Below are positions 12,250 to 45,858 of a stretch of DNA of 64,000 nt, piece after piece. Origin of the DNA: an uncultured Gemmatimonadaceae bacterium. GTDB lineage: Bacteria > Gemmatimonadota > Gemmatimonadetes > Gemmatimonadales > Gemmatimonadaceae. The notes under the pieces were generated by a model. It was not told the DNA's origin, ran no database searches, and worked only from the letters and a program-made list of their open reading frames with translations. The DNA lies in the NCBI GenBank assembly GCA_963829055.1, contig CAWHHI010000009.1, forward strand, positions 1 to 64,000, read 5' to 3'. Each line of letters starts with the position of its first letter. Position 1 is the stretch's first letter. Made by a program: the position numbers and the translations under genes.

Positions 12250-12855
12250 ATGGCGGAGCGCTGGCATCTCAAGGGACAGGTTCTGGTCGCGTGCAACTGC
12301 GATTGGGGTTGCCCCTGCAACTTCAACGCACGACCCACCACAGGCAAATGCGAGGGCGGGTGGACGTGGCACATCGAAGACGGGTCCTACGCCGGCGTCC
12401 CGCTCGATGGTCTCAACTTCTCCGTCTACGCCAACTGGCCCGGCGCGATCCACGAGGGCAACGGCGAGGCGCTCATCCTCATCGATGAGCGCGCGGATGC
12501 CCGCCAGCGCTCGGCGATCGAAACGCTCGTCGGCGGCACGGTCGGTGGACCGTGGGGCGTGCTGGGATGGACGTGGCCGAAGATCCACGGTCCGTATCCG
12601 GTCTCGTACGATCTCACGTTCGATGGTGTGAACACGCGAATCAAGTGCGGTGATCTCGTCGAGGTCGAGTGCGGTCCGATCCGCAATCCCGTTTCGGGCG
12701 CCGAAGTGCATCCGGGGGTCGTGCTACCGCAGGGCATCATCGTCAAGCGCGCGGACCTCGGCGCGACGACTCGCTTCCGCGTCTCTCGCGGCGTGGAGTA
12801 CGATCACTCAGGCCAGTACATGGCGGTCGGACCGTTCGAGTACGCATCGGCGTAA
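12250..12855 (+). CDS. DUF1326 protein
   Basis: ACNCDWGCPC...PT.G.C and WPGAIHEGNG...IDERA motifs. Confidence 0.9.
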   Translation: MAERWHLKGQVLVACNCDWGCPCNFNARPTTGKCEGGWTWHIEDGSYAGVPLDGLNFSVYANWPGAIHEGNGEALILIDERADARQRSAIETLVGGTVGGPWGVLGWTWPKIHGPYPVSYDLTFDGVNTRIKCGDLVEVECGPIRNPVSGAEVHPGVVLPQGIIVKRADLGATTRFRVSRGVEYDHSGQYMAVGPFEYASA

Positions 12856-12875
12856 GCGAGGCGGCGGCCAGAGTT

Positions 12876-12996
12876 GAAACGGCGCACGGCGGTAACGGCG
12901 CCAAATGCCGAACGGCGCGAAATCCCAGACGGCGCGAAATCCCGAACGGCGCGAAATCCCGAACGGCGCGAAATCCCGAACGGCGACAAAGAGCGG
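12876..12996 (+). repeat. 17-bp-unit array, solo arm
   Basis: GAAACGGCGCACGGC leader, 5 x ACGGCGCGAAATCCCGA-like units, AACGGCGACAAAGAGCGG end; starts about 20 bp after the DUF1326 stop. Confidence 0.95.
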
Positions 12997-13428
12997 AAAG
13001 GCGGCGGCGTTCGGCGCAGGATGGCGTTCGAGTAATACCTCTTCCATGTCGAGTGCACGTCGCCGCGAGATCACAGTCGCGCCTAACGCTGGAATCGCGA
13101 CCTGCGCGCGTCGTACGACGGTGGGCGGGCGATCGTCCGAACGAGAATGTGGCACGGACTCCTCCGGCGTCGGCACCTAACGCGGATTGTCGACGACTGG
13201 TACGCCGTTAGGCGGCGAGCGGTGGGAGTGGAGCGGTGAAGGGCGGGCGCCGGCGGTGAAAGGTCGCAGCGTCATGCGGGCGCAGTCGCGACGAGCATCG
13301 AGCGCTGTATGGGCGCCACGCTGCGTGTCCGTTTCGTTAGGCCATCCACGTACTAATCAGTGGAGGGGAAGTGCCCCTGCTCGCACGTATGCAGACGCGG
13401 CCGACGCCGCACACGAAGGAGGAGGAAA

Positions 13429-14025
13429 ATGCAGTACAACGCATCACGATGGTTTGGACGTTCATGGCTCGTCATCGCAGCCGCTCTCGCGAGTGCATGT
13501 GCCGACAATGCACCGCTCGCACCAGTCGACGCGACGACCGCGCGACGCGTGGCGGCGGCCGCGGATGTGAGCGATGGGAATCGCCTACCGGATCTTCCGG
13601 CCGGCTGCGAAAAGCTCGGGGCGCCGGTGGGAAGCACGCTCCTGCTCCACGCCTTCGGCATTGGCGTTCAGATCTACACCTGGAACGGCTCGAGCTGGGG
13701 TACCGCCGTGCCGGCGGCGACGTTGTACGCCGATGAAGGAGGCCACGGAGTGGTCGCCGACCACTTCGCCGGTCCGAGGTGGAAGAGCAACAGTGGCAGC
13801 ACGGTCCTCGGCACGGTCGCCGAGCGCTGCATTCCGGACGCCGCGTCGATTGCGAATCTTGCGCTCAATGCGGTTTCGGACGGCGCCCCCGGCCTGTTCC
13901 AGAGCGTGAACTTCATCCAGCGGCTCAATACCGTGGGTGGCAACGCTCCTTCCACGCCCGGCTTCCTCGGCCAGGTAGCCAAAATTCCGTACACGGCCGA
14001 CTACCTGTTCTACAAGACTCCGTAA
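13429..14025 (+). CDS. DUF3455 lipoprotein
   Basis: AGGAGG RBS; ASAC lipobox; GVQIY, HFAGPRW, IQRLNTVGG.AP, PYTADYLFY. Confidence 0.9.
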   Translation: MQYNASRWFGRSWLVIAAALASACADNAPLAPVDATTARRVAAAADVSDGNRLPDLPAGCEKLGAPVGSTLLLHAFGIGVQIYTWNGSSWGTAVPAATLYADEGGHGVVADHFAGPRWKSNSGSTVLGTVAERCIPDAASIANLALNAVSDGAPGLFQSVNFIQRLNTVGGNAPSTPGFLGQVAKIPYTADYLFYKTP

Positions 14026-14155
14026 TTCGTCCGCTGCTGAACGTCGAGAGGCCGAGCGCGCGATCCAGCCTCAGCGTGGTCGTGGCAGAACGGGCCACGG
14101 CCACGCCACCGTGCGTCGTCCGGATGGAAGCGGACGTCACGCTCGAACGTGATCC

Positions 14156-14206
14156 TTCCTCATGCGCCCACTTCGTGGGCACCCGGCTACGCTCGCTCGG
14201 AATGAC
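14156..14206. repeat. REP-like half element (…CGCTCGGAATGAC family)
   Basis: TTCCTCATGCGCCC-hairpin-GGGCACCCGGCT..CGCTCGCTCGGAATGAC, nearly identical to 22953-23009. Confidence 0.7.
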
Positions 14207-14211
14207 CAGCC

Positions 14212-15732
14212 TCAATGGATCTGAATGTTGCCACCATCGATCGGTGTGGTGACCGGCGCGTTCTGCGCTGCTCCGGGCTGCGTGTCGTAGAGGACCGACG
14301 TGCCGGCCGCGTTCCACAGCTCGATACGGATTGCGTCCGCGTTGCTGCCGTGGCGGCCCTTCTGGCCATCCACGGCCGTGATGCGGAAGCGAGCCGCGAC
14401 GCCGTTCACCGTCCCGGTGCCCCAGAACTGCGCACGGTTGCCAGAAACGATGAGCATCTCGATCGCCGTGCTCTCGAAGTTCAACTGTGCGCCCGGGATC
14501 CAGAACTTCGCGTTCCCGTCAGGCACCGTCTGGCCGTGGAGGAACCTCACGGTGAAGGTGAAATGCGCCTTCGCATTGCCCTGTCCGGGCACGTCGTAGA
14601 ACCCGCCGCCGGTGGTGAACGCGCCTTCCGGATTGATGACGGGCGGGCGGAACTCGAGTGTCGCGACGCGGTCGGCGAAGACCACCTGTCCGCGATTGTT
14701 GATGGCGGTAACCGACGTCATTCCCGTCAGCGGGAAGACGTCCTCCATGCCGTCCGTCTCGGTCCACACGAAGCCATGTCGCTCGAGGGCCGCAGTGTAG
14801 CTCTCGCCGACGACCTGTCCCAGGTCGTTGACATCGCTCGCGATAGTCGAGCGGCCGACCGCGCCTAACGTGCCGATGTCGCGCATGCCGTCGCGCGGGG
14901 TCCAGAGAAACGCTCGGACGGAAGGCGGCCCACTGTTGGTGCGGCCGACGACCCACCCTGCTTCGTTGAGGGCCAGCGCGACCGTCGGTTCGCCGCCGAG
15001 ACTCCCGAGGTCCCGTGTCCCGGTGCCGGGTGTCCAGAGGAATGCATGATCCTCTTCGCCGAAGCGCGCGGTGCCGGCCAGCTGCCCGGCATTATTGAAG
15101 TCGATTACCTGACCGGGGATGCCGGTGCTCGCGGCGAGGTCCTGCATTCCCCCGCCTGGTGTCCAGAGGAACATTCTGCCCGCGCCAGTCGCCGAGCTGC
15201 TGAGGCCTATGACGCGGCCTTCATCGTCAATGGCGCGGGCGTAGCTGTAGACGCCATCGTCCAAGGTGCCGAGATCCTGCATGCCTGTCCCCGGTGTCCA
15301 GAGGAACGCATGCCATGTCTGGCTCCCCGTGAGGTCGGCGTAGCCCGTCACCTGTCCGGCGTTGTTGATGCCCACGGCGTAGCTGTGAAATCCACCGAGG
15401 GTTCCGAGGTCTTGCATGCCTCCGCCCGACGTCCAGAGGAAGGCGTGCGTGCGCCCGGCGGACGTGTTGCTCCAGCCAACCACCTGGCCGGCATCGTTGA
15501 TGTCGGCGGCCATCGTGGTCGCCCCGCCTAACGTCGGCAGTACGGTGACACTGGCGCCTACGACGGCGGCGCGCGGTACTGTGCGGCTGGCGATCGACGG
15601 ACTCGTCGGAAGCTTGTCGGGCTGCTGGTCGCACGCGGCCGCCCCGATGAGAGTCGTCAGGATCCCGACCAGCGCACGACGTACAACGTGTACGGCGGCG
15701 GGTCCGCGGATCGGTTGGATGAGATGCTTCAT
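14212..15732 (-). CDS. Extracellular HAF-repeat lipoprotein with C-terminal beta domain
   Basis: ATG at 15732 (MKHLIQ); AAAC lipobox; repeated INDAGQVVG...HAFLWT.G.GMQDLGTLGG. Confidence 0.85.
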   Translation of the reverse strand: MKHLIQPIRGPAAVHVVRRALVGILTTLIGAAACDQQPDKLPTSPSIASRTVPRAAVVGASVTVLPTLGGATTMAADINDAGQVVGWSNTSAGRTHAFLWTSGGGMQDLGTLGGFHSYAVGINNAGQVTGYADLTGSQTWHAFLWTPGTGMQDLGTLDDGVYSYARAIDDEGRVIGLSSSATGAGRMFLWTPGGGMQDLAASTGIPGQVIDFNNAGQLAGTARFGEEDHAFLWTPGTGTRDLGSLGGEPTVALALNEAGWVVGRTNSGPPSVRAFLWTPRDGMRDIGTLGAVGRSTIASDVNDLGQVVGESYTAALERHGFVWTETDGMEDVFPLTGMTSVTAINNRGQVVFADRVATLEFRPPVINPEGAFTTGGGFYDVPGQGNAKAHFTFTVRFLHGQTVPDGNAKFWIPGAQLNFESTAIEMLIVSGNRAQFWGTGTVNGVAARFRITAVDGQKGRHGSNADAIRIELWNAAGTSVLYDTQPGAAQNAPVTTPIDGGNIQIH

Positions 15733-15745
15733 GATACGCTCCTGA

Positions 15746-17896
15746 TCACTTGCTGCGGATCTGGATGTTGCCACCCTCGATCCTCTGTGTGACCGGCGCG
15801 TCCTGCGCGGCGCCGGGCTGGCTGTCGTAGACGAGCGCGCCACTCGCGTCCCAGAGCTCGACGCGGACCGCGTCGGCGCTGCCGTATGGGCCCCCTTCCG
15901 CCCCTCCTCGGCGGTGATGCGGAACCGCGCGGGTGCGCCGTTGAGCGTGCCGGTGCCCCAGAACTGTGCGCGGTTCGCCGACACGACGAGCATCTCGATG
16001 GCGGTGCCCTCGAAGTCCAGGTCCCGGGTCGGGATCCAGAACTTCACCGACCCGTTAGGCGTGGTCGCGTGCCCAGCCAGGAAGCTCGCGCTGAACGTGA
16101 AATGCGCCTTCCGGTTGCCCTGGCCGGGGATGTCGTAGAACCCGCCGGCCGTGACGGAGCCGCCCGCAGGGTCGAAGACGACGACGTACCGGAAGAACGC
16201 CGGCGCGCTCGCGCCGCCATCCTCATCGGAGACGGTGACGCTCACGGTGTAGACACCGGCACTCGTGTACGCGCACGTGCCTGCGTACGTGCCCTTTCCC
16301 ACGTACACTCCGTTCACGATGGTATTGGACACGGGTGACGTTCGTCGCGCTGAGCACCACGCCGTTACCGCACGCGACCTCGGCCGCATACACGTCGCTG
16401 ATTCCCGCCGGATCCCTGAACTCGAAGGCGATGGGGGCGCTCGCGCTACCGCCCGTCAGCAGGAGGGGTGTGGCCGGCCCCGTTAGGCTGCCGGGGAGAA
16501 TCGTCGGAGCGATGTTGGCGACGGTGACCGTCGTCGTGGCCGTGTCTCTGCCGCCCCGCCCGTCGGAGGCGACCAGCGTGAGGGTGTACGTGCCGTTGTC
16601 CGCGTACACGTGCGTCCCCGTCCGAGATGGAGAAGTATGGGGCAGCATGGTGTCGAACGCGTCCCACATGCCGTCACCGTAGTACACCAATCCCCAAAGC
16701 TGTCCGCCATCCAGATCGCTTCCGGACATGTTGAACAGCACCTGCGATCCCTCGGAGCCGGTGTACGGTCCGTCCGTCTTCGCCACGGGGAAGACGTTAC
16801 CCGGCGCCAGGTGGGGTATGGCCACGCGACCGTTGCCGACTACCTGCAGGCGGTCGTTGATGGCAACCGCCGTGGAAATGCCGGTCGTCGGCGTGATGCT
16901 CTCGAGCCCCTCCGACGTGGTCCAGATGAAGGCATGCTGTCCCGAGTTGCAGCAGCCCAAGCCTATGGTGCTCGTCCCGACGATCTGGCCCGCCTCGTTG
17001 ATGCCATACGCTGCGCTGCTGTTGCCCGGCGGCCCGAAGGCGCCGAGAGACCGGAAACCGTCCGTGGGTGTCCACATCCATGCGTGGGACGGCAGAATTG
17101 TCGCCACTCGGCCGACTACGGTTCCGGCGTCGTTGATCGCCTGGGCAATGCCGCCGCCGAGGCTCTGCATTCCCTGACCCGGCGTCCACAGGAAAGCGCT
17201 CGAGAAGTCCTCTGGATCGGTCGGCGGAAGAATGACACGGTCGACCGAGTACGCTCGACCCACCACCTGCCCGGAGTTGTTGATGTCGTAGGCGATGCTG
17301 GCGTTGAGGCCGCCGAGAGCACCGAGGTCCTCCATCCCGAGAGCGGCTGTCCACCGGAACGCATGTGTCACTGGCCCGACGAATGGAACGTCCGGGTTGA
17401 CGCGAGGCCTCGTGCTTTGCCCCACCACCTCTCCACGATCGTTCATGCCGCGAGCGATGCTCGACGTGCCGCCGGGGAGGGTGCCGAGGTCCCGCATGCC
17501 TTCACCCGGCGTCCACACGAACGCATGCGTGGCGCCCGTAGCCGTGGTGCTGGACCCGGCGACGTGGCCGGACCCATTGATCGCATACCCCCGGCTCGAC
17601 GGACCGCCGAGCGTGCCGAGGTCCAGGACCCCCCCACCCGGGGTCGATACCGCAGCATGGCCGTTCAGCGTTCCGGCCACCTGACCGGCCGCATTGATCG
17701 CGACACCGTCGAACCCGAGGTTGGTGATGTCCGCGCCAAGGATCGCTGGCAGCGGCGTTGGAAGAGTTCTTAGTGGACTGGTCGGCAGTGGATCGTCCCT
17801 GTTGCATGCCGTGACCAGGGCAAGCGTCAGAACGGCGACGACCCGTGTTGCATTGGACGTCGTCCGTCGGAGAAACTTTTGCATGCGGTATCGCAT
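15746..17896 (-). CDS. HAF-repeat plus PKD-domain lipoprotein (frameshifts near 16330 and 15880)
   Basis: HAF repeats; PKD motif HVYADNGTYTLTL; C-terminal domain paralogous to the next gene; stop TGA at 15746-15748. Confidence 0.8.
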
Positions 17897-18136
17897 AGAG
17901 GCCTCCTCACTGCACGAGAGGGATGCAGAGGCCCCATTCGTCGGGCGCGTCTCACCAGCCCTCTGCGGCTCAAGGTAGGCGTCTAGCGACGCGCATCAGT
18001 CCGGCCGTGCCTGAGCTTCCGTCCGGATATGTCCGACGTGGAATAGCTGTATCAGGCGTATAGGGCAGGAGGAGCCCGGTCAGCGAGTATGAGATGCTCC
18101 TCGGCGCTGCACGTCCGCGATGCGGGCGGTCGCTGC

Positions 18137-19315
18137 CTAACGCTTCCCGTCGGGGGCCGAGCGCAGCCACGCCGGCAGCCAATCGCCCCACAGCTTTCGC
18201 CGATAGACCTGGGCACTCGGCGGATCGTAGTTGGAGAGGACGATCAGCGTGTGGCCGGTGGAGTTCATGTAGAAGATCGTGTTGATCCCCTCCGCGCCGC
18301 CGGCCCACCCACCGGCCCAGCCGTCGGCGCCGAAGGGGGACGGGTTGCGGAGGTCGAGCAGCGAATCTGTGAACGTCGCATCGAGCAGGCGGTGCGCGGC
18401 GATCGCCTGCGAGAGCCGCAGCAGGTCTTCGGCCGAGGAGTAGCCGCCTCCAGCGGACGAACCTCGATAGGCGAGCAGCGACTCCGCCGGCCGCCGCTCG
18501 GGCAGTCGCCTGGCGTCCTCGGCGAAGTCGCCAGCCACACTCGGCGCCGTGGTGTAGGGGATCGCCGTGTTAGGCGCGCGGTCGTCCGGCGTGAAGTAGC
18601 CGGTGTTGCGCATGCCGACCGGGTCGAAGATGTGCTGCTGGACGTAGTCGTAATAGCTCTGCCCACTCGCGCGCTCGATGATCTTCCCGAGCACGACGTA
18701 GCCGGCGTTGCTGTACGCCTGGCTCGTTCCCGGGGCGTACTGCAGCGAGTCCGCCGCGAACAGCGCGATCCAGTCGTCGAGGGTGCGCAGCGTTAGGCGC
18801 TTCGCGACCAGCGTCCGGTAGTTGTCGGTGCCGAAATCGCCGAGCCCGGATCGCATCTCGTAGAGGAGCTTGATCGTCACCTCGTCGCGCACACGCGGGT
18901 TGGGATAGTCGGGCAGATACTTTCCCACCCTGTCCGTCATGGCCAGCTTGCCGGCGTGCTGGAGCTGCCGGATCGCGATGCGCGTGAAGAATTTGTCGAG
19001 GGATCCAAGGTTGAACCGCGTGTCGAGCTTGTTAGGCGTGCCCGTGGCGCGGTTCGCGAGGCCGACAGCTCGGGTGTAGATCGGCACGCCATCGCGGGCG
19101 AGCAGCACCACGCCCGAGAGCGAGTCCATCGCGACCCGCGTCCGCGTGAATGTGTCCACAGTCGCGACGAGCACGCTGTCTCGTGGATCGAGGGCAGAGT
19201 GCGGTGTGGCCTCCGGTATTGCGCCAGCGTCACGGCGTGGCGCCGACGAGCACCCGCCAAGCGCGATGTGGAACGCGAGCACGAGCGTGAACGAGTGTCG
19301 GCGCGACCGCATCAC
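18137..19315 (-). CDS. Serine hydrolase, beta-lactamase class C-like
   Basis: FNLGSLDK (SxxK) and YSNAGY motifs; lipoprotein signal. Confidence 0.9.
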   Translation of the reverse strand: MMRSRRHSFTLVLAFHIALGGCSSAPRRDAGAIPEATPHSALDPRDSVLVATVDTFTRTRVAMDSLSGVVLLARDGVPIYTRAVGLANRATGTPNKLDTRFNLGSLDKFFTRIAIRQLQHAGKLAMTDRVGKYLPDYPNPRVRDEVTIKLLYEMRSGLGDFGTDNYRTLVAKRLTLRTLDDWIALFAADSLQYAPGTSQAYSNAGYVVLGKIIERASGQSYYDYVQQHIFDPVGMRNTGYFTPDDRAPNTAIPYTTAPSVAGDFAEDARRLPERRPAESLLAYRGSSAGGGYSSAEDLLRLSQAIAAHRLLDATFTDSLLDLRNPSPFGADGWAGGWAGGAEGINTIFYMNSTGHTLIVLSNYDPPSAQVYRRKLWGDWLPAWLRSAPDGKR

Positions 19316-19896
19316 CGTTTCTCCTCAATGGCCTTACCGCGCTTCGCGGTCGCGGGCGCCGCATCGTCGAGCACCAGGTCGATCACGTCCTTGCTGAATC
19401 CTTCGAAGGCATAGCCGCCAGCGGAGCTGCGCCACCGTCGCTCCAGCCAGCCAAGCGTGGCGAGGTAGAGGATCTCGCCGAGGCGGCGTCCGCGCTCGCC
19501 CGGGACGCCTGCGTCCGACATGACCTGCTCGAAGAAGGCGACGCGCTTCGCCTCGATCGTCTCGACTCGACGCGCGACCTTCGAGTCGCGCCGTGCCCAG
19601 GCGAAGATCTCGCGGTCGGGTGGATACGGGCTCGCATTCGCGAGCTCGAAGAATCGGACGGCGCGCTCGCGCGGGGTCGGTGCCGCGCTCGCACCGGAGA
19701 TGAGCCAGGCGGTCTCCTCCTCCCATCGGGCGAGGATGGTGGCGAGCAGCTCTGCCCGATCCTCGAAGTGCCAGTAGAAGCTGCCGCGGCTGACACCGAG
19801 CTGGCGTGCGAGCACCTCGATGCGGACGGCGTCTATCCCGCCGCTGCGCAGCGCCTCAATGGCAGCGACGATCCATTCTTCGCGGCTGAGCGTCAC
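19312..19896 (-). CDS. TetR/AcrR transcriptional regulator
   Basis: HTH LARQLGVSRGSFYWHF; overlaps the hydrolase start. Confidence 0.9.
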   Translation of the reverse strand: MTLSREEWIVAAIEALRSGGIDAVRIEVLARQLGVSRGSFYWHFEDRAELLATILARWEEETAWLISGASAAPTPRERAVRFFELANASPYPPDREIFAWARRDSKVARRVETIEAKRVAFFEQVMSDAGVPGERGRRLGEILYLATLGWLERRWRSSAGGYAFEGFSKDVIDLVLDDAAPATAKRGKAIEEKR

Positions 19897-19906
19897 AGGC
19901 TGTTTC

Positions 19907-19968
19907 CATACAGGAGTGTATGCTCAAACTATGACAATCGGCCCAGCAGAGTCAATACAGTACTGTAT
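19907..19968. promoter_or_regulatory. Two TetR-type operators flanking a minus-strand promoter
   Basis: CATACAGGAGTGTATG (19907-19922) and ATACAGTACTGTAT (19955-19968), both ATACA-N4-TGTAT; minus-strand TTGACT-16nt-CATAGT between them. Confidence 0.7.
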
Positions 19969-20112
19969 GGTAACGACGACGAAGGGCCGTGTTCGCGCAG
20001 CGTGGCCGCTGACGATGAGATTGCCAGACACGTACATTGGCGCTCGCGTCGGAATCCGCGTGAAATGACGGGAGCGCGGCGTAAGGAATCGACCGAGTAT
20101 CGAGGTGGCAAC

Positions 20113-21435
20113 GTGAATCGCACTGTCGTTCGTGGCGCTCTGCTCGCTGCATTGCTCGCCCTCGCCGTCCGTGAGATCGGCGCGCAGTCCCAGCTCGACG
20201 CGCGACATCGGTGGGAGCGACTCTGCACCATCCGGCGCGAGAAGTTCGACCGCATTCTCCCCGAAGCGATGCGTGAGAACGGGATCGACATGTGGATCGT
20301 CGCCATGAAGGAAGGCCATTACGATCCGCTATGGGAGCTGCTCGGCCGCGGCTACGTGGGAAGCATCGGTTATTACATCTTCACGAACCGCGGTGGTGAC
20401 CGGATCGAGCGCGCCGCGATCGGAATAGACGATCATCATCGCGCGGCGTGCGGCGCGTACGACATCGACTCCACCGTCGCGTTAGGCCGCTTCGTCGCCG
20501 AGCGGAAGCCGCGGCGCATTGGCCTCGACATGTCGGAGGAGATGGGTCTCGCGGACGGGCTCTCGCACACGCTGTACACCCACATCGTGAAGGAGGTCGG
20601 CCCGGAGTACGCCTCACGCCTGGTGTCGGCGGAGAAGATGATCTCCGACTTCAGCTCGCGGCGCGTTGCGTCGGAGCTGGTGGCGTTCGGCGAGGCGACG
20701 GAGATCGGCCGACAGATCGCCGAGCGAGCGCTGTCGAAGGAGGTCATCACGCCAGGCATGACGACGCTGGCCGATGTCGCCTGGTGGATTCAGGACGAGA
20801 TGCTCCGGCGTGGGCTCGGCTCGTCGTTCGAGGCGCCGTCCATCTACATCACGGGACCGAACGGGATCGAGGCGACGTCGAACGATCGGATCATTCAGCG
20901 CGGCGATCTCCTGATGATCGATTTCGGCGTCGGTTACCTGAACATGTGGACCGACCAGAAACGGATCGCGTACGTGCTCAAGCCCGGGGAGACGGGGTTG
21001 CCGGCGAGCTATCAGCGCGCGTTCGACAACGCCGTGCGCGTCCGTGACGTGATCCATCGTACCGCGCGTCCCGGGAAGTCGGCGCAGGCGATGATGAACG
21101 AGCTGAATGCGGCGATCGCGGCCGCGGGGTTCACGGCGATGCGCGGCTTCAACGAGGTCCGTGCGGACGCGTCGGTCGAATTCATCATCGGGTGCCACTC
21201 GGTGGGCGACTGGGGCCACGGGATCGGGCCGTCGATGGCGTTCTTCAACCCCGGCCGCCTCACGTACGAGATGCGCCCGACGAACCTGTTCTCCATCGAG
21301 CTGTTCGCGTACACGCCGATCCCGGAGTGGCAGGGGAAGAAGCTCCGGATTCCGCTCGAGGACGACGCGGTGATCACGGCGCGTGGCGTGGAGTGGTTAT
21401 CGCCACCGATTCACCGAATAGGCCTCATACCGTAG
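20113..21435 (+). CDS. M24 (Xaa-Pro) metallopeptidase, secreted
   Basis: Signal peptide; IIQRGDLLMIDFG...TDQKR, HSVGDWGH, SIE and LEDD motifs. Confidence 0.9.
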   Translation: MNRTVVRGALLAALLALAVREIGAQSQLDARHRWERLCTIRREKFDRILPEAMRENGIDMWIVAMKEGHYDPLWELLGRGYVGSIGYYIFTNRGGDRIERAAIGIDDHHRAACGAYDIDSTVALGRFVAERKPRRIGLDMSEEMGLADGLSHTLYTHIVKEVGPEYASRLVSAEKMISDFSSRRVASELVAFGEATEIGRQIAERALSKEVITPGMTTLADVAWWIQDEMLRRGLGSSFEAPSIYITGPNGIEATSNDRIIQRGDLLMIDFGVGYLNMWTDQKRIAYVLKPGETGLPASYQRAFDNAVRVRDVIHRTARPGKSAQAMMNELNAAIAAAGFTAMRGFNEVRADASVEFIIGCHSVGDWGHGIGPSMAFFNPGRLTYEMRPTNLFSIELFAYTPIPEWQGKKLRIPLEDDAVITARGVEWLSPPIHRIGLIP

Positions 21436-21439
21436 CGCC

Positions 21440-22524
21440 CTACTTCACGCCCGGCCGCCGCGGATTGACGGCGACGGCGAGGTTCAGTCGCGTGTCGTGC
21501 GTGTTGTAGCTGATCTGCAGGTTGTAGCCGTTAGGCGTGACCGTGTGATAGCTCTTGTACTGCGCGACGTGAATCTCGGCCCCGTCCGACGTGTCGATCG
21601 TCACCGGAAGGCCGCGGCTCTCGAGCGCGGCTTTCACGCCGTCCGTGTCCCACGGCGAGATGCCGAACGAGATGTGATCGATCACGCCGCCAGCGCGGCC
21701 ACCCGCCGCTCCGAACGCCGGATCGAGCGGGTTGCCGCCGCGGATGATGATGTCGCCGACGTCGCCGATCATCAGCTCATTCTGGCTGCCCTCGTCGTAC
21801 GTCGGACCCCAGCCGAGCAGGTTGACGTAGAACGACACGCTGGCCTTGTAGTTCTTCGCGCCGAAGGAGAGGTGGTCGAGCCACACCGTTTGCCACCCGG
21901 TCGACTCGAACGGCGGTGCTTCCGAGAGCCTAACGTTGGCCGGCGATGTCGCGACGCGCCTTCGTGTAGCCCTTGCCGTTGCCGAGCTGCAGGTCGAAGC
22001 CGTCGCGGATCCCTGACGTGAAAGCTCTCGAATCCCTTGCCGTCGTTGTCGGCCACGGGGTCGAGGCCGCGCTTTCGCAGTTCCGCCTCGATCGACTTCG
22101 CATTCCACGGCTCGATGTCGAACGCGATGGTTTCGACGACGGCGCGGAGCGGCGGGCGATTGGCGTCGGCGCGCGCGGGTTGCGTGAAGGAGTCCGCGGG
22201 CGCCTGTCGAAAGATCACGGTTCCCCAGTCACCGACGTCCATGACGACGCGCTGCTCGTTCTCGCTCCGCGTCTTCCAGCCCATGAGCGCGGCGTAAAAC
22301 GCGGCTTCCTTCTTCGGCTCGGCGACGCGGAACGTGATGTGATCGAGCGACGCAGTGCGCCACCCCGTGCGCGCGAACACCGGAGGGATCGAGTCGGTGT
22401 TGCACGCCGGAGAGCCGTACGCACGGATGCAGCGCCCCTGCGCCGAGCCGACGTGCGGCATCAGGGTGATCGCGACGATCGTGCCTAACGTCAGCCAGCG
22501 GTGTCGCCGGATCTGGCCACTCAC
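21440..22524 (-). CDS. Two-domain VOC/glyoxalase protein, secreted (frameshifts near 21960-22010)
   Basis: Duplicated GW.T..LDHITF/LDHLSF...FY..L.GW modules. Confidence 0.8.
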
Positions 22525-22877
22525 CAATCCCCTCTGCTGTTCAGCCGATCCGCGGCGTACTGGATGGCGAAGGCGTGGGCGTCCCCGACTTCCTGCGGCA
22601 CATCGACCCACTCGCCGAGCGCGTCGCTGTAGTCGTAGATGCATGCTTCGCGCGCGTCGTCAGGCGACATGTGCCACGTGTCGCCACCGAACTCCCCGTG
22701 CGCGGTGTACCGGAAGAGCATGGCCCCTGGATCGTCGCCGGCGATCAGGAGGATCACGTCCGGCGGGGGAAGCATCTGCGACGGGTCGATCGGGAACCCG
22801 GCGGTCTGCGTCACGCGACGCTGGGTTGCGAGCGGGCCCACGAGGGCCAGGGAGCGTGTGCGGGTCGGTTGGGTCAT
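22521..22877 (-). CDS. Hypothetical protein
   Basis: 118-aa ORF (LFRY...GEFGGDTWH); overlaps the next gene start. Confidence 0.7.
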   Translation of the reverse strand: MTQPTRTRSLALVGPLATQRRVTQTAGFPIDPSQMLPPPDVILLIAGDDPGAMLFRYTAHGEFGGDTWHMSPDDAREACIYDYSDALGEWVDVPQEVGDAHAFAIQYAADRLNSRGDW

Positions 22878-22952
22878 AGGCAGAGTGACGGAGGCCCTCT
22901 AGCCTATCACTCGGGCGGCGTCGCCGTCAGGGGCATGTCCAGGGGACGCCAA

Positions 22953-23009
22953 GGATTCCTCATGCGCCCGCCTGTGGCGGGCACCCGGCTGTCGCTCGCT
23001 CGGAATGAC
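22953..23009. repeat. REP-like half element (…CGCTCGGAATGAC family)
   Basis: Matches 14156-14206. Confidence 0.7.
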
Positions 23010-23223
23010 CGCGGATCCGCGATCCGCTGGCACGCCTAACGTGTCGAGGACCGCCACGCGACGGCGACGACCGCGAAGGAGGCGATCTCGACCGCGGACG
23101 CACTCAGGCGCCAGACGCGTATGGGTCGCGTCGGGGCGAGAACACGAGGCTGGATGGACCAACACCGCGATCGCAAAGGCGACGACATAGCCGGACGCTA
23201 CCATGACTGTCCTGGCGGCGGTC

Positions 23224-23577
23224 TCAGGCGGTGCCGAACAGCACCTTCCTTCCATCCGGATCCGTCACCGTCACGACGACGTCGTCAACCGAGTACGGCT
23301 CAATGCCGAGCTGCTCGAGGCGCGCGCGGAATGCCTGCTGGTCTTCGATGTGGAAATAGAGCTGCGTCGCGTTCGAGCCGCACACGACGGGGAACGTATA
23401 GTCGGAGAACGCCTTCGCATCGTGGATCGCCAGCTGCATGCGCCCGTCATCGAGCCGCCAGTACACGTAGCCGCCGCTCTCACCCACCTGTTCCATTGGA
23501 AGACCGGCGACCTCGCGGTAGAAGCGTGCCGTGTCGGCTGGTTGTTCGGAGGTCAGGAACACCCCTCTCAGCATCAT
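23224..23577 (-). CDS. VOC/glyoxalase family protein
   Basis: ARFYREVAGL...TDPDGRKV; GGAG RBS. Confidence 0.85.
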   Translation of the reverse strand: MMLRGVFLTSEQPADTARFYREVAGLPMEQVGESGGYVYWRLDDGRMQLAIHDAKAFSDYTFPVVCGSNATQLYFHIEDQQAFRARLEQLGIEPYSVDDVVVTVTDPDGRKVLFGTA

Positions 23578-23711
23578 CACACAATTCTCCAAAAGACTGC
23601 CGACGCTCGGCGCAAACACTGGCCCGTGGCGTGCTGCGCGACCGGACGCGGGCACAGAACGACGTCCAAAGGAAGCAGCAACGTTACACGAACGTCACAC
23701 GAGGTGAGGTC

Positions 23712-24358
23712 ATGGCAGCACAACAATTACAGGGGAAGACGGTCGCGATTCTGGCGACGGATGGGGTAGAGCGCGTAGAGCTGACGGAACCGAGAAAGGC
23801 GCTCGACGCGGCCGGTGCGCGCACGGTCGTCGTGTCGCCCAGGACGGGGTCGATCAAGGGATGGGAGCACGATCACTGGGGTGAGTCGATCCCCGTAGAT
23901 CAGTCATTGGATGGAGCCCGCGCGGATCAGTTCGACGCGCTGCTGTTGCCCGGCGGCGTCATCAACCCGGATCAGCTTCGGCAGAACGAGCGTGCCGTTC
24001 AGTTCGTGCGCGGCTTCTTCGATGCGGGGAAGCCGTGGCGGCGATCTGTCACGGGCCGTGGATGCTCGTGGAGGCCAATGTCGTGCGGGGGCGAACGATC
24101 ACCTCGTGGCCCTCGCTCCGGACCGACATCCGCAACGCGGGCGCGGAGTGGGTGGATCGTGAGGTGGTGACCGATAAAGGCCTGGTCACGAGCCGCAAGC
24201 CGGACGACATCCCGGCGTTCAGCCGGAAGATGATCGAGGAGTTCGCCGAGGGCGTGCACGAAGGGCAGCGCCCGGCGGCCAGGCGAGAAGCTCGACCCAG
24301 CGGGCAGATGGAAGCGCGCGACGCGGTGAAGCGCGGACGAGAGCGCGGCGCGCGTTAG
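23712..24358 (+). CDS. pfpI: DJ-1/PfpI family protein (frameshift near 24033)
   Basis: [29 protein letters not shown] and [13 protein letters not shown] motifs. Confidence 0.9.
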
Positions 24359-24383
24359 GCGCGCCGCGCTCGCCGTGGTATTG

Positions 24384-24974
24384 CTACCCGATCGCGCCCG
24401 CCGCGGCGACGGCCGCGGGCTGCGAGTGCTCGAGACGATCCCGCGTCTCCAGTAACAACTCGAGGGCGTCCGCGAGGTGCTCTTCCGTGATGTGATGATC
24501 GCCGCGCTCGACGCGGAGTCGCTGCGCCGCCATCAGCACATCGGCATCACGGAAGCCGTCGGGCGTCTCGAACTTGTAGCACGCGAGCTCGACCTTGAGT
24601 CCGTTCGCGTCCTGCAGGTAGATCGAGTCCATGAACCCGCGATCGCGCTGCAGAAACTCGATCTCACGTTCGCGCAGACGAGCGGGTACCTGCGTGAACG
24701 TGGCTCTCGAGACGTTGAACGCAATGTGCTCCACGCACCCGACCTCGCGCGGCGCGGGGCGGCGAGCGTCGTCCCGGGACTCGTTGGTGAACACGGTGAG
24801 CAGACGTCCATCGCCGGGGTCGAAGTAGAGATGGTTCTCATCGGGCTTGCCGAGATTCGGCTGCTCCATGATGAACGGCATGCCTAACAAGCCGGACCAG
24901 AAGTCGATGGCGCTCTGCTTCGTGGAACCGACCAACGTGATATGATGAAGACCCTGAACCTGAAGTTTTTTCAT
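24384..24974 (-). CDS. VOC family protein
   Basis: MKKLQVQGLHHITL, HLYFDPGDGRLLT and EHIAF motifs. Confidence 0.9.
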   Translation of the reverse strand: MKKLQVQGLHHITLVGSTKQSAIDFWSGLLGMPFIMEQPNLGKPDENHLYFDPGDGRLLTVFTNESRDDARRPAPREVGCVEHIAFNVSRATFTQVPARLREREIEFLQRDRGFMDSIYLQDANGLKVELACYKFETPDGFRDADVLMAAQRLRVERGDHHITEEHLADALELLLETRDRLEHSQPAAVAAAGAIG

Positions 24975-25002
24975 CGGACTACCTAAGGTGAAAGTCGAAC
25001 GT

Positions 25003-25252
25003 CTAACGGCGCAAGCGGCTCTAACGGCGCGAAATGCCGAACGGCGCCAAATCCCAGACGGCGCGAAATCCCGAACGGCGCGAAATCCCAGACAGCGCGA
25101 AATCCCGAACGGCGACAAAGAGCGGAACGGCACCGCCGTTTGGCGCCGTTCTGGGATTTCGCGCCGTTCGGCATCTGGCGCCGTTTGGGATTTCGCGCCG
25201 TTCGGGATTTCGCGCTCTTCGGCATTTCGCGCCGTTAGGGCCGTCCGCCGTC
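25003..25252. repeat. Back-to-back inverted pair of 17-bp-unit arrays with no cargo
   Basis: Forward arm 25003-25125 and reverse-complement arm about 25135-25250; fills the amidohydrolase-VOC intergenic gap. Confidence 0.95.
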
Positions 25253-28200
25253 TTACTTGCCCGTGCCTGTTCCTGCCGATCCAGTCTCCGGGTTGAGGGC
25301 GTCGTGTGTCATCCACCATTGCTTGGGCATCGCACGCTGACGTGGCCAGATCTCGTTCAGTGTGCTGCCCTCGTATACGCGACCGTTCTTCATCACGAAG
25401 CGGATCGTGTTCGTGTTCTTGATGTCGTCGAGCGGATTCGCGTCCAGCACGATGCAGGTCCGCCAGCTTCCCGTTCTCCAGCGTGCCGATCTGCTTGCCG
25501 AGCCCGATCGACTCGGCGCCATAGATCGTCGCGACGCGCAGCACGTCCATCGGCTTCATGCCGCCGCTCGCGATGTTCCACATCTCCCAGTGCACGCCGA
25601 GTCCCTGCAGCTGACCGTGGCCGCCGAGTCCCACGCGGCCGCCCGCCTCCACGACCTTCTTCGCCTGCTCGGCGAACAGCTTGAACGAGTACTCGCTGTC
25701 GCGGAACCACTGCGGGCGACGCAGCGCGCGGCGCTCGAGCTCCGTGAACGGCGTGAAGTGCGTGAGCTTCGGCGTCGCTCAGGATGTCGTAGTGCTCGTA
25801 CCACCAGTTCTCCGCCCACGGGCCGCCGTACTGCACGAGCAGCGTCGGCGTCCACGTCGTCCCGCTCTTGGCGAACAGCTCGATCGCGTCCTTGTACATC
25901 GGCGCGATCGGCAGCGTGTGCTCGATGCCGGCGTAGCCGTCCATCGCCTCCGTCATGTTCTTCTTGAAGTCGAGCCCGCCCTCGAGCGTCGGCGTGATGT
26001 GCTGCTCCTTCGCCGCCATCGCGATCCACTGTCGCTGCCGACGGTCGCCGGCCATGTACTGCTTGATCGTCTCGGTGAGGTAGAACTCCGAGTAGCGCTT
26101 CATCACTTCCTTGCGCGTCGTCGCCGCTCGTGACGTTGTCCCAGTCGAAGATGCCCGGGCCGGTCGTGTAGATGCGCGGGCCGATGATCTGCCCGACGTC
26201 CACCGCGTCGCCGTACGAGATGACGTCGGCCGTCGACGTCTGCGGATCGCGCGTCGTCGTCACGCCGTACGCGAGGTTCACCGTGTACATGTACGGCTGC
26301 GGCGAGTGCACGCCCCACTGCGGCCACATGTGCGCGTGCACGTCCACGAAGCCGGGCATGATCGTCTTGCCGGACACGTCGATCGTTCGCGCGCCGTTAG
26401 GCACCGTGACGCTGCCTTCCGCGCCGACGGCGACGATGCGGTTGTTCGTGACCACGACGTCGCCGCGCGGGATCACCTCGTCGCCCTTCATCGTGATGAT
26501 GCGCGCGCCGCGCAGGACGACGGTGCCGGTCGGGCGATCCTTGGGCGCCGTGATCGTGATGTCGGTGCGCGTCGGCTCGTAGACCGGCTTGCCGCGCGCG
26601 GCACCGGCGTTAGGTGTTGCTGAATCAGGCCGCGCTGGACGCGGCGGCGCCTTGGCCGCCGAGTCCGCGGCGAGCGAATCGGCCCGCGCGACGTCGTACT
26701 GGAAGAACGCGCGACCCATCGAGTAGTACACGCCCTTCGAGTCGGCATTCCAGCCGAGGAAGTCGCCGCCGATGCGGGACAGTCGGCGGAAGGGAACCGC
26801 GCCGTTCGTCGCCTGCTCGACGGACACGGTCGGCGTCGGGCCGCCGGTCATCGGCAGCGGAATGACGTAGATCTTGTTGTCGACGAGCGCGAGCACCCGG
26901 CTCCCGTCCGGCGATGACCTGCAGCTCGGCTGCCCGTCGCGGTCTCGCGTTAGGCCCGCCGCCCGGCTGTCACGAAGCCCGTCACGATGAGGTGCGCCTT
27001 GCGGTCGGTGCCGTCCCAGCGCATCGACACGAGGCCATCCTCGTCGTCGTAGACCCACACGCGCGTCGTGTCGTTGCGTGAAGTGCGGGCGCTGGGCGTT
27101 CGTGAGCGGCGTGATCAGCGTCGCCGCGTCCGCCCGTCGCCGGGATCCACACCAGGTCCGTGATGATGAGCTTCGGGTTGATCTCGTCGTTGATCTCGGC
27201 GCGCTGCTCGCGCGGTGCGCGCACCGCGACGATCCGCGCGCCGGTCGGCGAATACGCGATCTCGTCGTAGAACGCCGACGCTCTCGTCAGCTTCTCCGGC
27301 TTCCCGCCGGCGGCCGGGACGCGCCAGATGTCGCCGCCTTCCTCCGTCCAGCTGACGAACGCGATGTACTTGCCGTCCGGCGACCACACGGGCGAGTGCT
27401 CGCCTTCGTCCGCCGTCGTCAGGCGCTTCGGCGTGCCCGAGGGCAGGTCCATGATCCACAGGCGATCGAGGGCCGAGAAGACGAGGCGCTTCCCGTTAGG
27501 CGACGGGCGCGCGCCGCGGATCTGGCGCACGGTGAGCGTCGTGTCGTTCACCGGATACTCGAAGCGAACGAGATCGCCGAGCATCTGGTCGACTTCGGCC
27601 GTGAACGGGATCTGCGTCTGCTGGCCGGACGTCGCGTCGACGCGCCAGATGTGACCGTGGTGCGCGAGCACGAGCGCCTTCGAGTCCGGCATCCAGGCGT
27701 AGCCGGGCAGCAGGTCGCGCGAGCCGCGCGACTCGATGTCGTCGCGCTGGATGTCGTTCGCGAGCCACTGCTCGTCGCCTGACGAGAGCTCGCGCAGCTT
27801 GAGTCCCGTGATCGCCATGCGCCGCGAGCCGTACGCGAGCCACTTGCCATCGGGGCTCACCTGCGGGCGGAAGCCCGTGCCGAGGTTGAGCGTGCGCCGC
27901 TCGAGCCGACCCGTCTGGCGGTCGTACATGACGACCTGTGTCGTGCCCAGCATCTGGTTGTAGCCGGCGGGACCCGTGCGCGCGCTCGCGTAGATGTAGC
28001 GGCCGTCCGGCGTCGCCGACGCACCCATGAAGTTGGATGGCGCGTTCCCGCCACCGGGCCCACCCTGTGTGCGGCGGTGGCGTCTGCCCCGTTAGGCGAA
28101 GTCCGCTGCCGCCATTGCGGTGATAGAGCCAGAGGTCGTTGCTCTTCGAGACGATGACGTACTGGCCGTCCGGCGTCCACGCGGGCGAGACGTACGCCTG

Positions 28201-43427: not shown

Positions 43428-44190
43428 CCGGGCTTCGGCGCCTTCCTGCGAAAGGAGCTCATCGAGATTCGCCGGACGTGGCGGCTCTGGGTGATCCCCG
43501 GGATGCTGGTGTTCTTCGGCGTGACGAGCCCGATCATCGCGGCGCTCACGCCGGCACTGGTGCGGTCGATGGCCGCGTCGCAGCCGGGAGTCGTGATCCG
43601 GCTGCCGCCACCGACCGCGCTCGACGCCTACGCGCAGTTCATCAAGAACCTCAACCAGTTCGTGCTCATCGCGGTGGTGATCACCGGCGCGGGGGTCGTC
43701 TCGGGCGAGCGCGTCCTCGGGAACGGCGATCCTCGCGCTGACGAAGCCGCTCTCGCGCGGCGCGTTCGTGGTGGCGAAGATCCTGTCGCAGCTCGCGCTC
43801 CTCGTGGCGGCCACCGCGTTAGGCACGACAGCCTGCCTGGTGATGACGGCGGTGGTGTTCGGCGGCGCCGACGCCACTCGGCTCGTGACCGCGGTGGCGC
43901 TGTGGCTCGTCTACGCCACGCTGCTCGTCGTGGTGATGACGCTCTTCTCGGCGGCGTTTCGCTCGCGCGGCGCGGCCGCGGGTGCGGGGCTCGGTTTCTT
44001 CTTCCTCACGCTCCTGTTCTCGAGCTGGGGACCGGCGGCGCGGTACAGCTTCCTCGGGCTGCTGCCGGCCATGCGCAACGCGCTGGTCGGACAGCCGATG
44101 TCGTTAGGCTGGCCGGTCGTGACGGCGGTAGCGGCGATCGCGGTCGGAGCGGTGGCGGCGGTGCGGATCTTCGAGCGGCAAGAACTATAA
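43424..44190 (+). CDS. ABC-2 type permease (frameshifts)
   Basis: F..FLRKEL.E N-terminus, six hydrophobic helices, F.RQEL end. Confidence 0.85.
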
Positions 44191-44209
44191 GAAGACGCAA
44201 CTGCAAGTC

Positions 44210-44696
44210 CGAAACGGCGCACGGCCCGAACGGCGCCAAATCCCAGACTGCGCGGAATCCCGAACGGCGCGGAATCCCAGACGGCGCGAAATCCCGAACG
44301 GCGCGAAATCCCGAACGACGACAAAAGGCGAGACGGCGCTAACGGCGGAAGCCGCGGCGCTGGCCGCGCGCAGATGATTATCGGGCGTCAGATGGGTTGC
44401 GCATCGCGGCCGTGCAGGCGCCACCGTGGGGCCGTGCTCGACGCGGCCGAGCAGGCCGCCCAGATGGTCAACGACCTGATCGACGGCGCCGGTTCACAAC
44501 CTGTTGGTGGTGATCGTGAAGATGCTGAACTCGTTGCTAAATCGTTGACTGCGCTGTTCCGCTGTTAGGTCGTCCCGCTTTTTGTCGCCGTTCGGGATTT
44601 CGCGCCGTCTGGGATTTCGCGCCGTCTGGGATTTCGCGCCGTCTGGGATTCCGCGCCGTTCGGCATTTGGCGCCGTTCGGGCCGTGCGCCGTTTCG
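44210..44696. mobile_element. Element bounded by inverted 17-bp-unit arrays (44210-44330 and 44575-44696) enclosing a decayed ORF
   Basis: Perfect 32-bp terminal inverted repeat (44210-44241 / 44665-44696) followed by 5-unit arrays; mobility is inferred. Confidence 0.7.
44374..44548 (+). pseudogene. Probable internally deleted four-helix-bundle (TIGR02436/Avd-like) gene
   Basis: AVLDAAEQAAQMVNDLID (from 44431) joined out of frame to PVHNLLVVIVKMLNSLLNR* (44489-44548), resembling the first and last helices. Confidence 0.55.
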
Positions 44697-45858
44697 AGGC
44701 GGACTACGTCTCCTTCGACCGGGAGCGCGGCACGGTGCGGGCCGAGTGCGGTGAGCGGCGCGTGCTGCGCCACGCGCTCCGGGTCGTGGGCGACGACCGT
44801 GAACGCCTCGAGCACGAACGGAACGCCCTCGCTCCGAAGCGGCGCCGCCGCGGGGTCAGCAGCCTCGGTCACATGAAAGTGGAGGTGCGGCCCGTCCGAG
44901 TTCCCCGAGTTGCCGATCGCACCGAGGATCTGTCCCCGGTGAACCACGTCCCCTACCCGTACACGCAGGCTGCCGGGCTTGAGGTGCCCGTAGAGTGCGT
45001 ACCGGTGCGCCTCACCCTGTCCGATCCGAGGTCCAGGAGCACGTAATTCCCGAGGACGGTCGCCACCCGCATCGGCACCGCGCGGGAGCCCTCGCCTGGC
45101 GTGTTGTCCGGGATGCTGTCCATGACCGCGGCCACGCGCGCGTCCGCGACCGCGAGCACCGGCTCTTCGTAGCCGTACCAATCCGTGTTCCGCCGCCCGC
45201 GGTGGTCGCGCGCGTACTCGCCGCGGGCGTCCATCTTCACCCAATCGATCGCGAAGCGCTGGGCGAGGTGCGGCACGGTGTCTTCGCCGACGCGGATCAC
45301 GGCGCGTCGGTGCTCGGACACGTTCGACGGCCCGAGGCCGATCCACCAGTCGCCGGCGCCCACAGGCGGCGCGAGGACAAGGTCCGCTCGCGGACGCACG
45401 AGTACCGATACGCCATCGGCCACACTCCCGTCCGCGAACGCAACGTGGTGCGTGAGCGCCCTCGGCAACGTTGCCGAGGAGTCGAAGGTGAGCCAGAGAT
45501 AGACGACCGCGCGCACACCAGGAGTCAGCCCCTTTGGCGGTGGGGCGCCGCGGGGCGCGATCAGCTTCGCGTCACGCTCGATCTCCGCCCTTCCGTACGT
45601 GGCGACCGGAGCCGCGTCCGCACGGTCGGCGTCGCGCACTTCCAGCCGATCGAGACGGAGCGGCCGGGTGCCGACGTTCGCGATGTGCAGCTCGTACACG
45701 AGGACCACGCGTCCAGCGGCGGCGACCGGCACGGGCGCGGCGGGGACACTGAGCAGCACGGGAGCACCTTGCCTCGCCACGGCCGGCGAGTACTCGCGTG
45801 CGGCAACGCTACTGACCGCGACGATGGCGAGCGTCCGTATACCAGCGAAATGCCTCAC
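44537..45858 (-). CDS. M23 family peptidase (frameshift near 45010); 3' end runs into the repeat arm
   Basis: QRFAID, GNYVLL, YGHLKPGSLRV and GNSGNSDGPHLHF motifs. Confidence 0.88.

Follow-up and report, generated by a model that had tools for sequence, protein, structure and literature searches.

The element described here lies in a 64,000-nt window of an uncultured Gemmatimonadaceae bacterium (assembly GCA_963829055.1, contig CAWHHI010000009.1, positions 1 to 64,000 of the forward strand), and positions given without a contig refer to that window. At 44210-44696, between a gene that has no Pfam match and an M23 peptidase gene, and not in an rRNA gene, two arms face each other in inverted orientation. 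A repeat search places them at 44210-44335 and 44571-44696, each of 126 nt, 90% complementary and 235 nt apart, and direct reading gives a perfect 32-bp terminal inverted repeat in which 44210-44241 is the reverse complement of 44665-44696. Both arms are tandem arrays with a period of 17 (5.5 and 5.6 copies according to Tandem Repeats Finder, that is, 5-6 units of 17 bp per arm), and a motif scan that allows up to three mismatches finds five unit matches in each. An original prediction, made from the letters of the window alone, had described arms of about 120 bp, the same 32-bp repeat and five units per arm, and it holds on all three counts. The parts of the element are the following.

44210-44335, no strand assigned: left arm, with an outer unit of GAAACGGCGCACGGCCC type, five 17-bp units of AACGGCGCGAAATCCCG type, and the inner cap CGACGACAAAAGGCGAGACGG.
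44336-44430, plus strand: remnant of the 5′ leader of the cassette; in the alignment, about 21 nt holding the relatives' start codon are absent just before 44434.
44431-44484, plus strand: N-terminal gene remnant AVLDAAEQAAQMVNDLID, about residues 8-25 of the intact four-helix-bundle protein.
44485-44492, plus strand: deletion junction, where about 203 nt (about residues 27-94) are gone relative to intact relatives and the frame shifts.
44489-44548, plus strand: C-terminal gene remnant PVHNLLVVIVKMLNSLLNR and its stop codon, in a frame different from that of AVLDAAEQAAQMVNDLID.
44549-44570, plus strand: remnant of the 3′ trailer, from the stop codon to the right arm (reading and alignment).
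44571-44696, no strand assigned: right arm, an inverted copy of the left arm (reading, repeat search and unit matches).
44537-44699, minus strand: tail of the M23-peptidase frame, which crosses the right arm and stops inside the cassette; its native end was probably near 44700.

Folded as RNA, 44205-44701 has a predicted energy of -365 kcal/mol; 100 shuffles average -229.9 (z = -18.6), and 0 of them are as good. The locus is not a CRISPR array, as its units are contiguous and have no spacers, and it is probably no integron attC site either, since by eye the ends lack the GTTRRRY/RYYYAAC pair. The neighboring gene without a Pfam match had first been taken for an ABC-2 permease, which was not borne out.

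What the arms enclose is the debris of a gene. When the interior is searched at the DNA level against 200 family members, its 3′ part gives short, significant matches. The best is to the congener G192, at the 3′ end of its intact gene (84% over 64 nt, E-value 4.5e-13), and both remnants align, in order, with four intact genes of relatives. Set against those four cassettes, two stretches are absent from the window copy: one of about 21 nt, with the start codon in it, and one of about 203 nt from the middle of the gene (columns 331-533 of the alignment of the window copy with the four cassettes). The larger deletion joins LDAAEQAAQMVNDLID out of frame to PVHNLLVVIVKMLNSLLNR-stop. This is what had been proposed from the letters, namely two peptides fused out of frame within an internally deleted arm-gene-arm cassette. 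Metagenome contigs from two runs of one study span the deletion junction at about 4.5% divergence (X1 record 4 covers 44269-44540, and X2 record 12 covers 44290-44549), so that the deletion is real, rather than an assembly error, and older than the divergence of these strains.

The proposed four-helix-bundle identity stands through the relatives and not through the peptides themselves. Five frames of the interior compared to Pfam report 0 families at E-values up to 10, because the remnant is too short and broken; the interior aligns, on the other hand, to genes of relatives that belong to PF05635/TIGR02436 and lie between inverted arms. Within this genome the interior is unique. It has no counterpart elsewhere, and blastn and tblastx searches against the genome's own 11 PF05635 genes report chance-level matches only. 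Judged by its sequence, then, 44210-44696 is a dead copy of a hairpin-bounded PF05635/TIGR02436 gene cassette.

Intact cassettes were read in four relatives from the same genus and the same family, named Gemmatimonadaceae in their record titles. The layout is fixed: an array of 16-17-bp units, a leader of about 75-200 nt, a gene of 108-112 aa, a trailer of about 3-200 nt, and the array again, inverted. The relatives' ORFs match both PF05635 (E-values 3.5e-18 to 1.1e-9; 38.8-66.2 bits, with a cut-off of 33.8) and TIGR02436 (38.7-67.8 bits, with a cut-off of 24). The original prediction had staked itself on a family match and on other arm pairs flanking such a gene, and these cassettes have both. 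Its expectation of an intact ORF of about 110-120 aa between inverted arms is borne out in the relatives (108-112 aa) but not in this genome, where the intact subfamily gene has 0 matches at an E-value of 1e-15.

The predicted structure of the intact G066 protein, from a model on 25 sequences, is a four-helix bundle with a pLDDT of 93.7 and helices at residues 2-25, 34-53, 58-83 and 89-110. Its structural matches are 2RLD (TM 0.91), 2GSC (TM 0.82), and the Avd protein of diversity-generating retroelements (DGRs; PDB 4DWL, 8UB7; TM 0.77-0.78). The model thus shares a fold family with DGR Avd, but sequence identity to Avd is 8-11%, and among solved structures it is closest to 2RLD and 2GSC, neither of which is a DGR protein. 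Neither a reverse transcriptase nor a template/variable repeat pair was noticed next to the cassettes that were read.

How constant is the association of gene and arms? A pattern scan of a species genome collection with one genome per species found 17 loci (16 of them titled Gemmatimonadaceae or Gemmatimonadota, and one only "bacterium"), and all 17 have arrays with 16- or 17-bp units on every side that the contig reaches. In a sample of the family, each of the 30 intact loci fetched has arrays both upstream and downstream, with an equal base period on the two sides in 27. At an E-value of 1e-15 or better, the subfamily gene is present in 33 of 401 family genomes and in 6 of 77 genera, with 1-4 copies each; plasmid and phage collections searched with the intact protein gave no match. 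G066 has three intact genes as well as over 25 hairpins. The protein tree divides, with good support, into two clades (SH-aLRT 99 each). One clade, of 9 proteins, has unit periods of 12-14. The other, of 21, has 16-17 on both sides in 19 cases, the exceptions being L125 (14/13) and L121 (25/16). Unit length follows the protein tree, which indicates joint divergence of the gene and its arms as a single unit. Purifying selection acts on the protein (dN/dS of 0.09-0.24 in 13 of 13 pairs), which is functional where intact. Moreover, one cassette is found at an orthologous locus in three species of the genus g31, which implies that intact cassettes can pass vertically for a long time.

The arrangement extends to other members of the protein family. 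In this genome, 7 of the 11 other PF05635 genes are flanked by inverted short-repeat arms made of other words, mostly heptamers, and an Rfam search beside the 11 genes found no rRNA. Two such four-helix-bundle cassettes have conspicuous neighbors. One (L006, G000:C16:411096-414305, at 957-1927) has inverted (GCCATCA)n arms and starts 43 nt past the 3′ end of a tmRNA gene (Rfam RF00023, 158.7 bits); the 3′ end of tmRNA is a classic landing place of mobile DNA. The left arm of the other (L011, G000:C8:326416-329601, at 1055-1239) lies about 30 nt from a TPP riboswitch on the opposite strand (RF00059, 67.8 bits).

A motif scan of the 7.78-Mb genome found 15 clusters with two or more units. One of them, C11:441578, is not an array, and 14 loci remain: 11 arm pairs, the window copy included, and three one-armed or truncated loci (C9:12876, C20:44440 and C16:1042965). 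Two of these loci are also in the window.

25003-25250, no strand assigned: gene-less hairpin of the short-loop type, with six units per arm, beginning at the TAA of a minus-strand gene.
12876-13000, plus strand: one-armed copy; the left arm has the short-loop inner cap, and the right arm is about two degenerate units.

Their unit arrays span 25023-25240 (an arm pair with a short loop) and 12894-12985 (a single arm), and the 25003 element folded as DNA has z = -14.6. The empty copy and the solo copy that the original prediction had named are therefore both real, and its view of them as a decay series of one element family agrees with the caps, junctions and units that the copies share. The loop junction AGCGGAAxGGCACCGCCGTTkGG is common to eight loci; the one-armed C9:12876 is a ninth short-loop locus, which has the left inner cap alone in common with them. 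A second junction, with a longer loop that retains both inner caps, is found at three loci. In an alignment of seven of the nine short-loop loci (C6:231 and C20:44 were left out), the six full copies and the solo arm match one another unit by unit, and the variants specific to each arm match as well. The gene-less copies occur in both orientations at unrelated sites. As an example, the 25003 copy is 91% and 87% identical to opposite-orientation copies on C20 and C8, and only 82% identical to its own reverse complement. Shared junctions, together with copies that are more alike than their own two arms, indicate that they descend from progenitors already without the gene, which spread to new sites by copying. 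In other genomes the loop junctions differ from these. At G000:C16:1042965-1043200, a solo arm of about 11 units precedes a 14-nt repeat, AACGGCGGACGACG, present in three copies, and no inverted partner lies within 3 kb. The gene-less hairpins are likely stripped-down copies that multiplied after gene loss, which would mean a kind of mobile cassette without a transposase.

The elements sit at the ends of genes. By crude ORF calling, at least 5 of the 14 take up the interval between two convergent stop codons and leave gaps of about 0-33 nt, and the C20:833 element begins directly after a TAG. At 44210-44696, the M23-peptidase frame (minus strand, 44537-44699) gains about 52 arm-encoded residues, while the G066 M23 homolog ends two or three codons past the arm boundary; the insertion has thus probably replaced the native stop codon of the peptidase gene. 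At the C20:816 site, the same two genes are separated by 34 bp in G192 and by about 411 bp here, which is presence and absence between species and which we count in favor of mobility. At the C20:833 site, G121 has a hairpin of a different family, built of 7-8-nt words, G161 has a degenerate array of heptamers, and both G066 and G250 have plain hairpins; in G192 there is no hairpin directly after the stop codon, but another gene and then a heptamer hairpin. The G121 locus (L145, G121:C21:51000-51600) can be set beside G000:C20:833357-833627: at the same site after a conserved gene, one has a gene-less hairpin of CAGTCGT type and the other a hairpin of 17-bp units. At the 25003 site, the stop codon of the same gene is followed immediately, in the congeners G161 and G192, by a short hairpin whose arms each contain one unit-like word. 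We count this against mobility, as it could mean growth in place.

Other comparisons between genomes are less direct. Around 44210, the upstream gene alone is syntenic in congeners, and for the C20:933 element the two flanks are on different contigs in five of five congeners. As originally reported, no target-site duplication is visible at the element ends; the empty sites are all in species with flanks about 78-87% identical, too diverged to place the element boundaries to the base. No metagenome contig skips the element at 44210 (the joints found stem from other gene-less elements), and for the C20:973 and C20:979 elements the metagenome contigs run from flank into arm, with no empty site. 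Insertion polymorphism at the strain level was not seen: in metagenome contigs of about 95-99% identity, the elements occupy identical positions. In the window, a segment of 12.4 kb (12848-25256) runs from the one-armed copy to the empty hairpin; in its place there are 3.4 kb in G161 and 2.4 kb in G192, with conserved outer flanks. The genes of the window segment are ordinary accessory ones, for PKD/DUF3466 proteins, a PF00144 hydrolase, TetR, an M24 peptidase, DJ-1 and a glyoxalase, and there is no transposase, integrase or recombinase among the 10 ORFs scanned. The original prediction saw no transposase, and none is found in or beside the window cassettes that we examined.

The two arms of an element do not stay exact complements of each other. 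When the pairing of each arm with its own partner is compared with cross pairings between elements, as a test of compensatory change, the own-partner score is below the best cross score in 10 of 10 gene-less pairs; the gene-bearing window copy stands out alone (102 vs. a mean of 74). In G177, at the g31 locus, the upstream array is 100% uniform over 10 units but does not match the downstream arm of the same cassette at 4 of 16 positions. For 10 of 27 cassettes, the uniformity inside both arms exceeds the similarity of their two consensus units. Arms that are more uniform within than between imply turnover by homogenization within each arm, in which exact complementarity is not preserved. The number of units also varies widely between close cassettes (5.2 vs. 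8.2 and 2.6 vs. 9.2 units for L111 and L115), and single arms are up to 99-100% uniform, from which we conclude that slippage is active. A gene-less element in G095 (L032, G095:C11:278040-278460) has at least 17 near-identical 17-bp units in its right arm and about 7 in its left, which is evidence of one-sided array expansion. This evidence for the evolution of arms by within-arm homogenization is specific to the present locus and its relatives.

The best known setting of this protein family is the intervening sequence (IVS) of rRNA genes. PMC4990558 describes, in helix 45 of the Coxiella burnetii 23S rRNA, an IVS with an S23p ORF and a 28-bp terminal stem that is cut by RNase III in vitro, and it cites Leptospira for ORF-bearing 23S IVSs. 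In CPR bacteria, insertions in rRNA genes that bear 23S_rRNA_IVP (PF05635) are described beside ORF-less ones (bioRxiv 10.1101/2024.02.27.582315). The present element is like a 23S IVS in that its terminal inverted repeats form a predicted stem with a PF05635-family gene in the loop, in its sporadic presence among bacteria, and in the existence of ORF-less forms. It differs in its location, which is between protein-coding genes and not in a 23S or 16S rRNA helix; in its arms, which are 126 nt of 16-17-bp tandem units and not a 28-bp stem; and in its gene-less copies, which are dispersed through the genome.

It is also like MITEs and REPINs (PMC10969869, PMC3116915), which are short dispersed intergenic hairpins in both orientations, derived by internal deletion from a longer gene-bearing form and then multiplied. 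Terminal inverted repeats and 14 dispersed loci are MITE-like; but the parent here encodes no transposase, only a four-helix protein of about 110 aa, no target duplication is seen, the arms are tandem arrays of changing unit number, and no units flank the single RAYT-like gene of the genome. A further possible likeness is to the foldback (FB) transposons of Drosophila. These have long inverted arms of short tandem repeats, and some copies have little or nothing between the arms. FB transposons are similar in their tandem-repeat inverted arms and near-empty copies, and unlike the present element in being eukaryotic and much larger.

Our preferred reading, to which we give a probability of roughly 0.6, is that 44210-44696 is a dead copy of a hairpin-bounded cassette of a type that likely spreads as a DNA unit, with the arms acting in cis and the protein in trans, and that the gene-less hairpins are likely its non-autonomous, MITE-like derivatives. 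The arms would be the cis sites and the small four-helix-bundle protein the trans factor, copying most likely taking place at the DNA level in the manner of MITEs. We propose the protein as the trans factor on four grounds: the full form encodes no other product, the protein is conserved, the unit length can be predicted from its clade, and one of its structural relatives is Avd, a pentamer that binds nucleic acid and a reverse transcriptase. On this reading the repeated units would be bound by the protein, and the copies would stem from transposition-like copying and not from chance. With the last gene copy broken, the family would now be immobile in this genome, and the surviving hairpins may be merely tolerated at gene ends or may be used there as RNA or terminator stems. 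Against this reading we count the imperfect fit between an arm and its own partner which, with the uniformity inside each arm, indicates that perfect pairing is not maintained. The negative results for a recombinase or transposase in or beside the window cassettes, for a target-site duplication and for insertion polymorphism among strains also weigh against it.

Three other explanations compete with, or complement, the transposase-less cassette. The strongest of them, which we consider possible but somewhat unlikely as the main account, is that the element works at the RNA level as an rRNA IVS does: it is co-transcribed, the arms pair, RNase III cuts the stem, and dispersal is a side issue. 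The cut would free the mRNA for the four-helix-bundle protein, and it would separate or stabilize the flanking transcripts, all of which is compatible with our preferred reading. It agrees with the predicted stems, which are strong both when the window copy is folded as RNA (z = -18.6) and when the empty copy is folded as DNA (z = -14.6), with the position of at least 5 of the 14 elements between convergent stop codons, where a stem would end transcripts, and with the place of the same protein family in the loop of the Coxiella 23S IVS, whose stem RNase III cuts in vitro (PMC4990558). A surplus of mismatches that are G:U-compatible on the sense strand over A:C mismatches could have favored an RNA stem, but the counts over 36 rows are 213 and 224 (binomial p = 0.63), with no excess; two loci are counted twice in these numbers, and without them the counts are 191 and 193. 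More than half of the arm mismatches (494) are neither G:U-compatible nor A:C. Nor is there any T-run terminator or sigma-70-like promoter in a scan of 44000-44900, or any Rfam family or rRNA in a search of 12500-45500. An explanation without any mobility is unlikely in our view. It would have the arrays grow in place from terminator hairpins by replication slippage, with the flanks of a resident gene attracting arrays. The one-word hairpins of G161 and G192 at the 25003 site fit this, and so do the varying unit number between close cassettes (L111 and L115), the 99-100% uniformity of arms, and the G095 element with at least 17 units on the right and about 7 on the left. Growth in place does not, however, account for the loop junction common to eight loci and the identical succession of unit variants in both of their arms, for copies in both orientations that are more alike than their own two arms, for an intergenic site that holds different arm families in different species, or for the patchy presence of the subfamily (33 of 401 genomes, 6 of 77 genera).

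Could a classical enzyme encoded elsewhere move the hairpins, as the RAYT Y1 transposase moves REPINs or an IS family its MITEs, with the gene as passenger cargo? This we hold to be the least probable of the explanations, and very unlikely. An inverted-repeat doublet with a short spacer does resemble REPINs (PMC3116915), the genome has one Y1 transposase gene (PF01797), and gene-less copies outnumber gene-bearing ones. Yet no arm sequence lies within about 1.5 kb of that gene (C20:35020-35346) in either direction: a search of the 3.5 kb around it reports two 11-nt chance matches (E-value 0.36). The 12-kb segment between the two other window copies has no transposase either. Moreover, the four-helix-bundle gene does not behave as random cargo, given arms at 30 of 30 loci, a unit length that tracks the protein tree, and arms at 7 of the 11 other PF05635 genes.

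The cassette reading can be carried further, although only as a speculative and rather doubtful extension. PF05635 proteins in general would be trans factors of widespread transposase-less foldback cassettes, and the IVSs of rRNA would be copies that landed in rRNA genes. The ends of such foldback cassettes would be arrays of protein-binding units, with a unit length that co-evolves with the protein, and the cassettes would shed gene-less MITE-like copies.

A literature search that covered sources other than subscription journals found no description of four-helix-bundle genes in repeat hairpins outside rRNA genes. The rRNA form, with PF05635 ORFs in stems, is already known; the novelty lies in the 16-17-bp units, in a copy caught midway from the full to the empty form, and in junctions that show copying after gene loss. 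To our knowledge, PF05635/TIGR02436 is a large family with no function known outside DGRs, and the origin and spread of rRNA intervening sequences has been an open question since the 1990s.

This locus and its relatives show that a gene and its repeat arms form one heritable unit, that unit length follows the protein phylogeny, and that gene-less forms were copied once the gene was lost. The question of what the protein does then becomes concrete. Does it bind its own 16-17-bp unit? Does it move the hairpin, or maintain it? The cassettes also offer a source for the long tandem-repeat hairpins at gene ends, which are otherwise unexplained intergenic repeats that break short-read assemblies. And if PF05635 proteins do belong to a class of foldback cassettes, nature's clearest record of their life cycle would be the 16-17-bp family of the Gemmatimonadaceae and its decay series.
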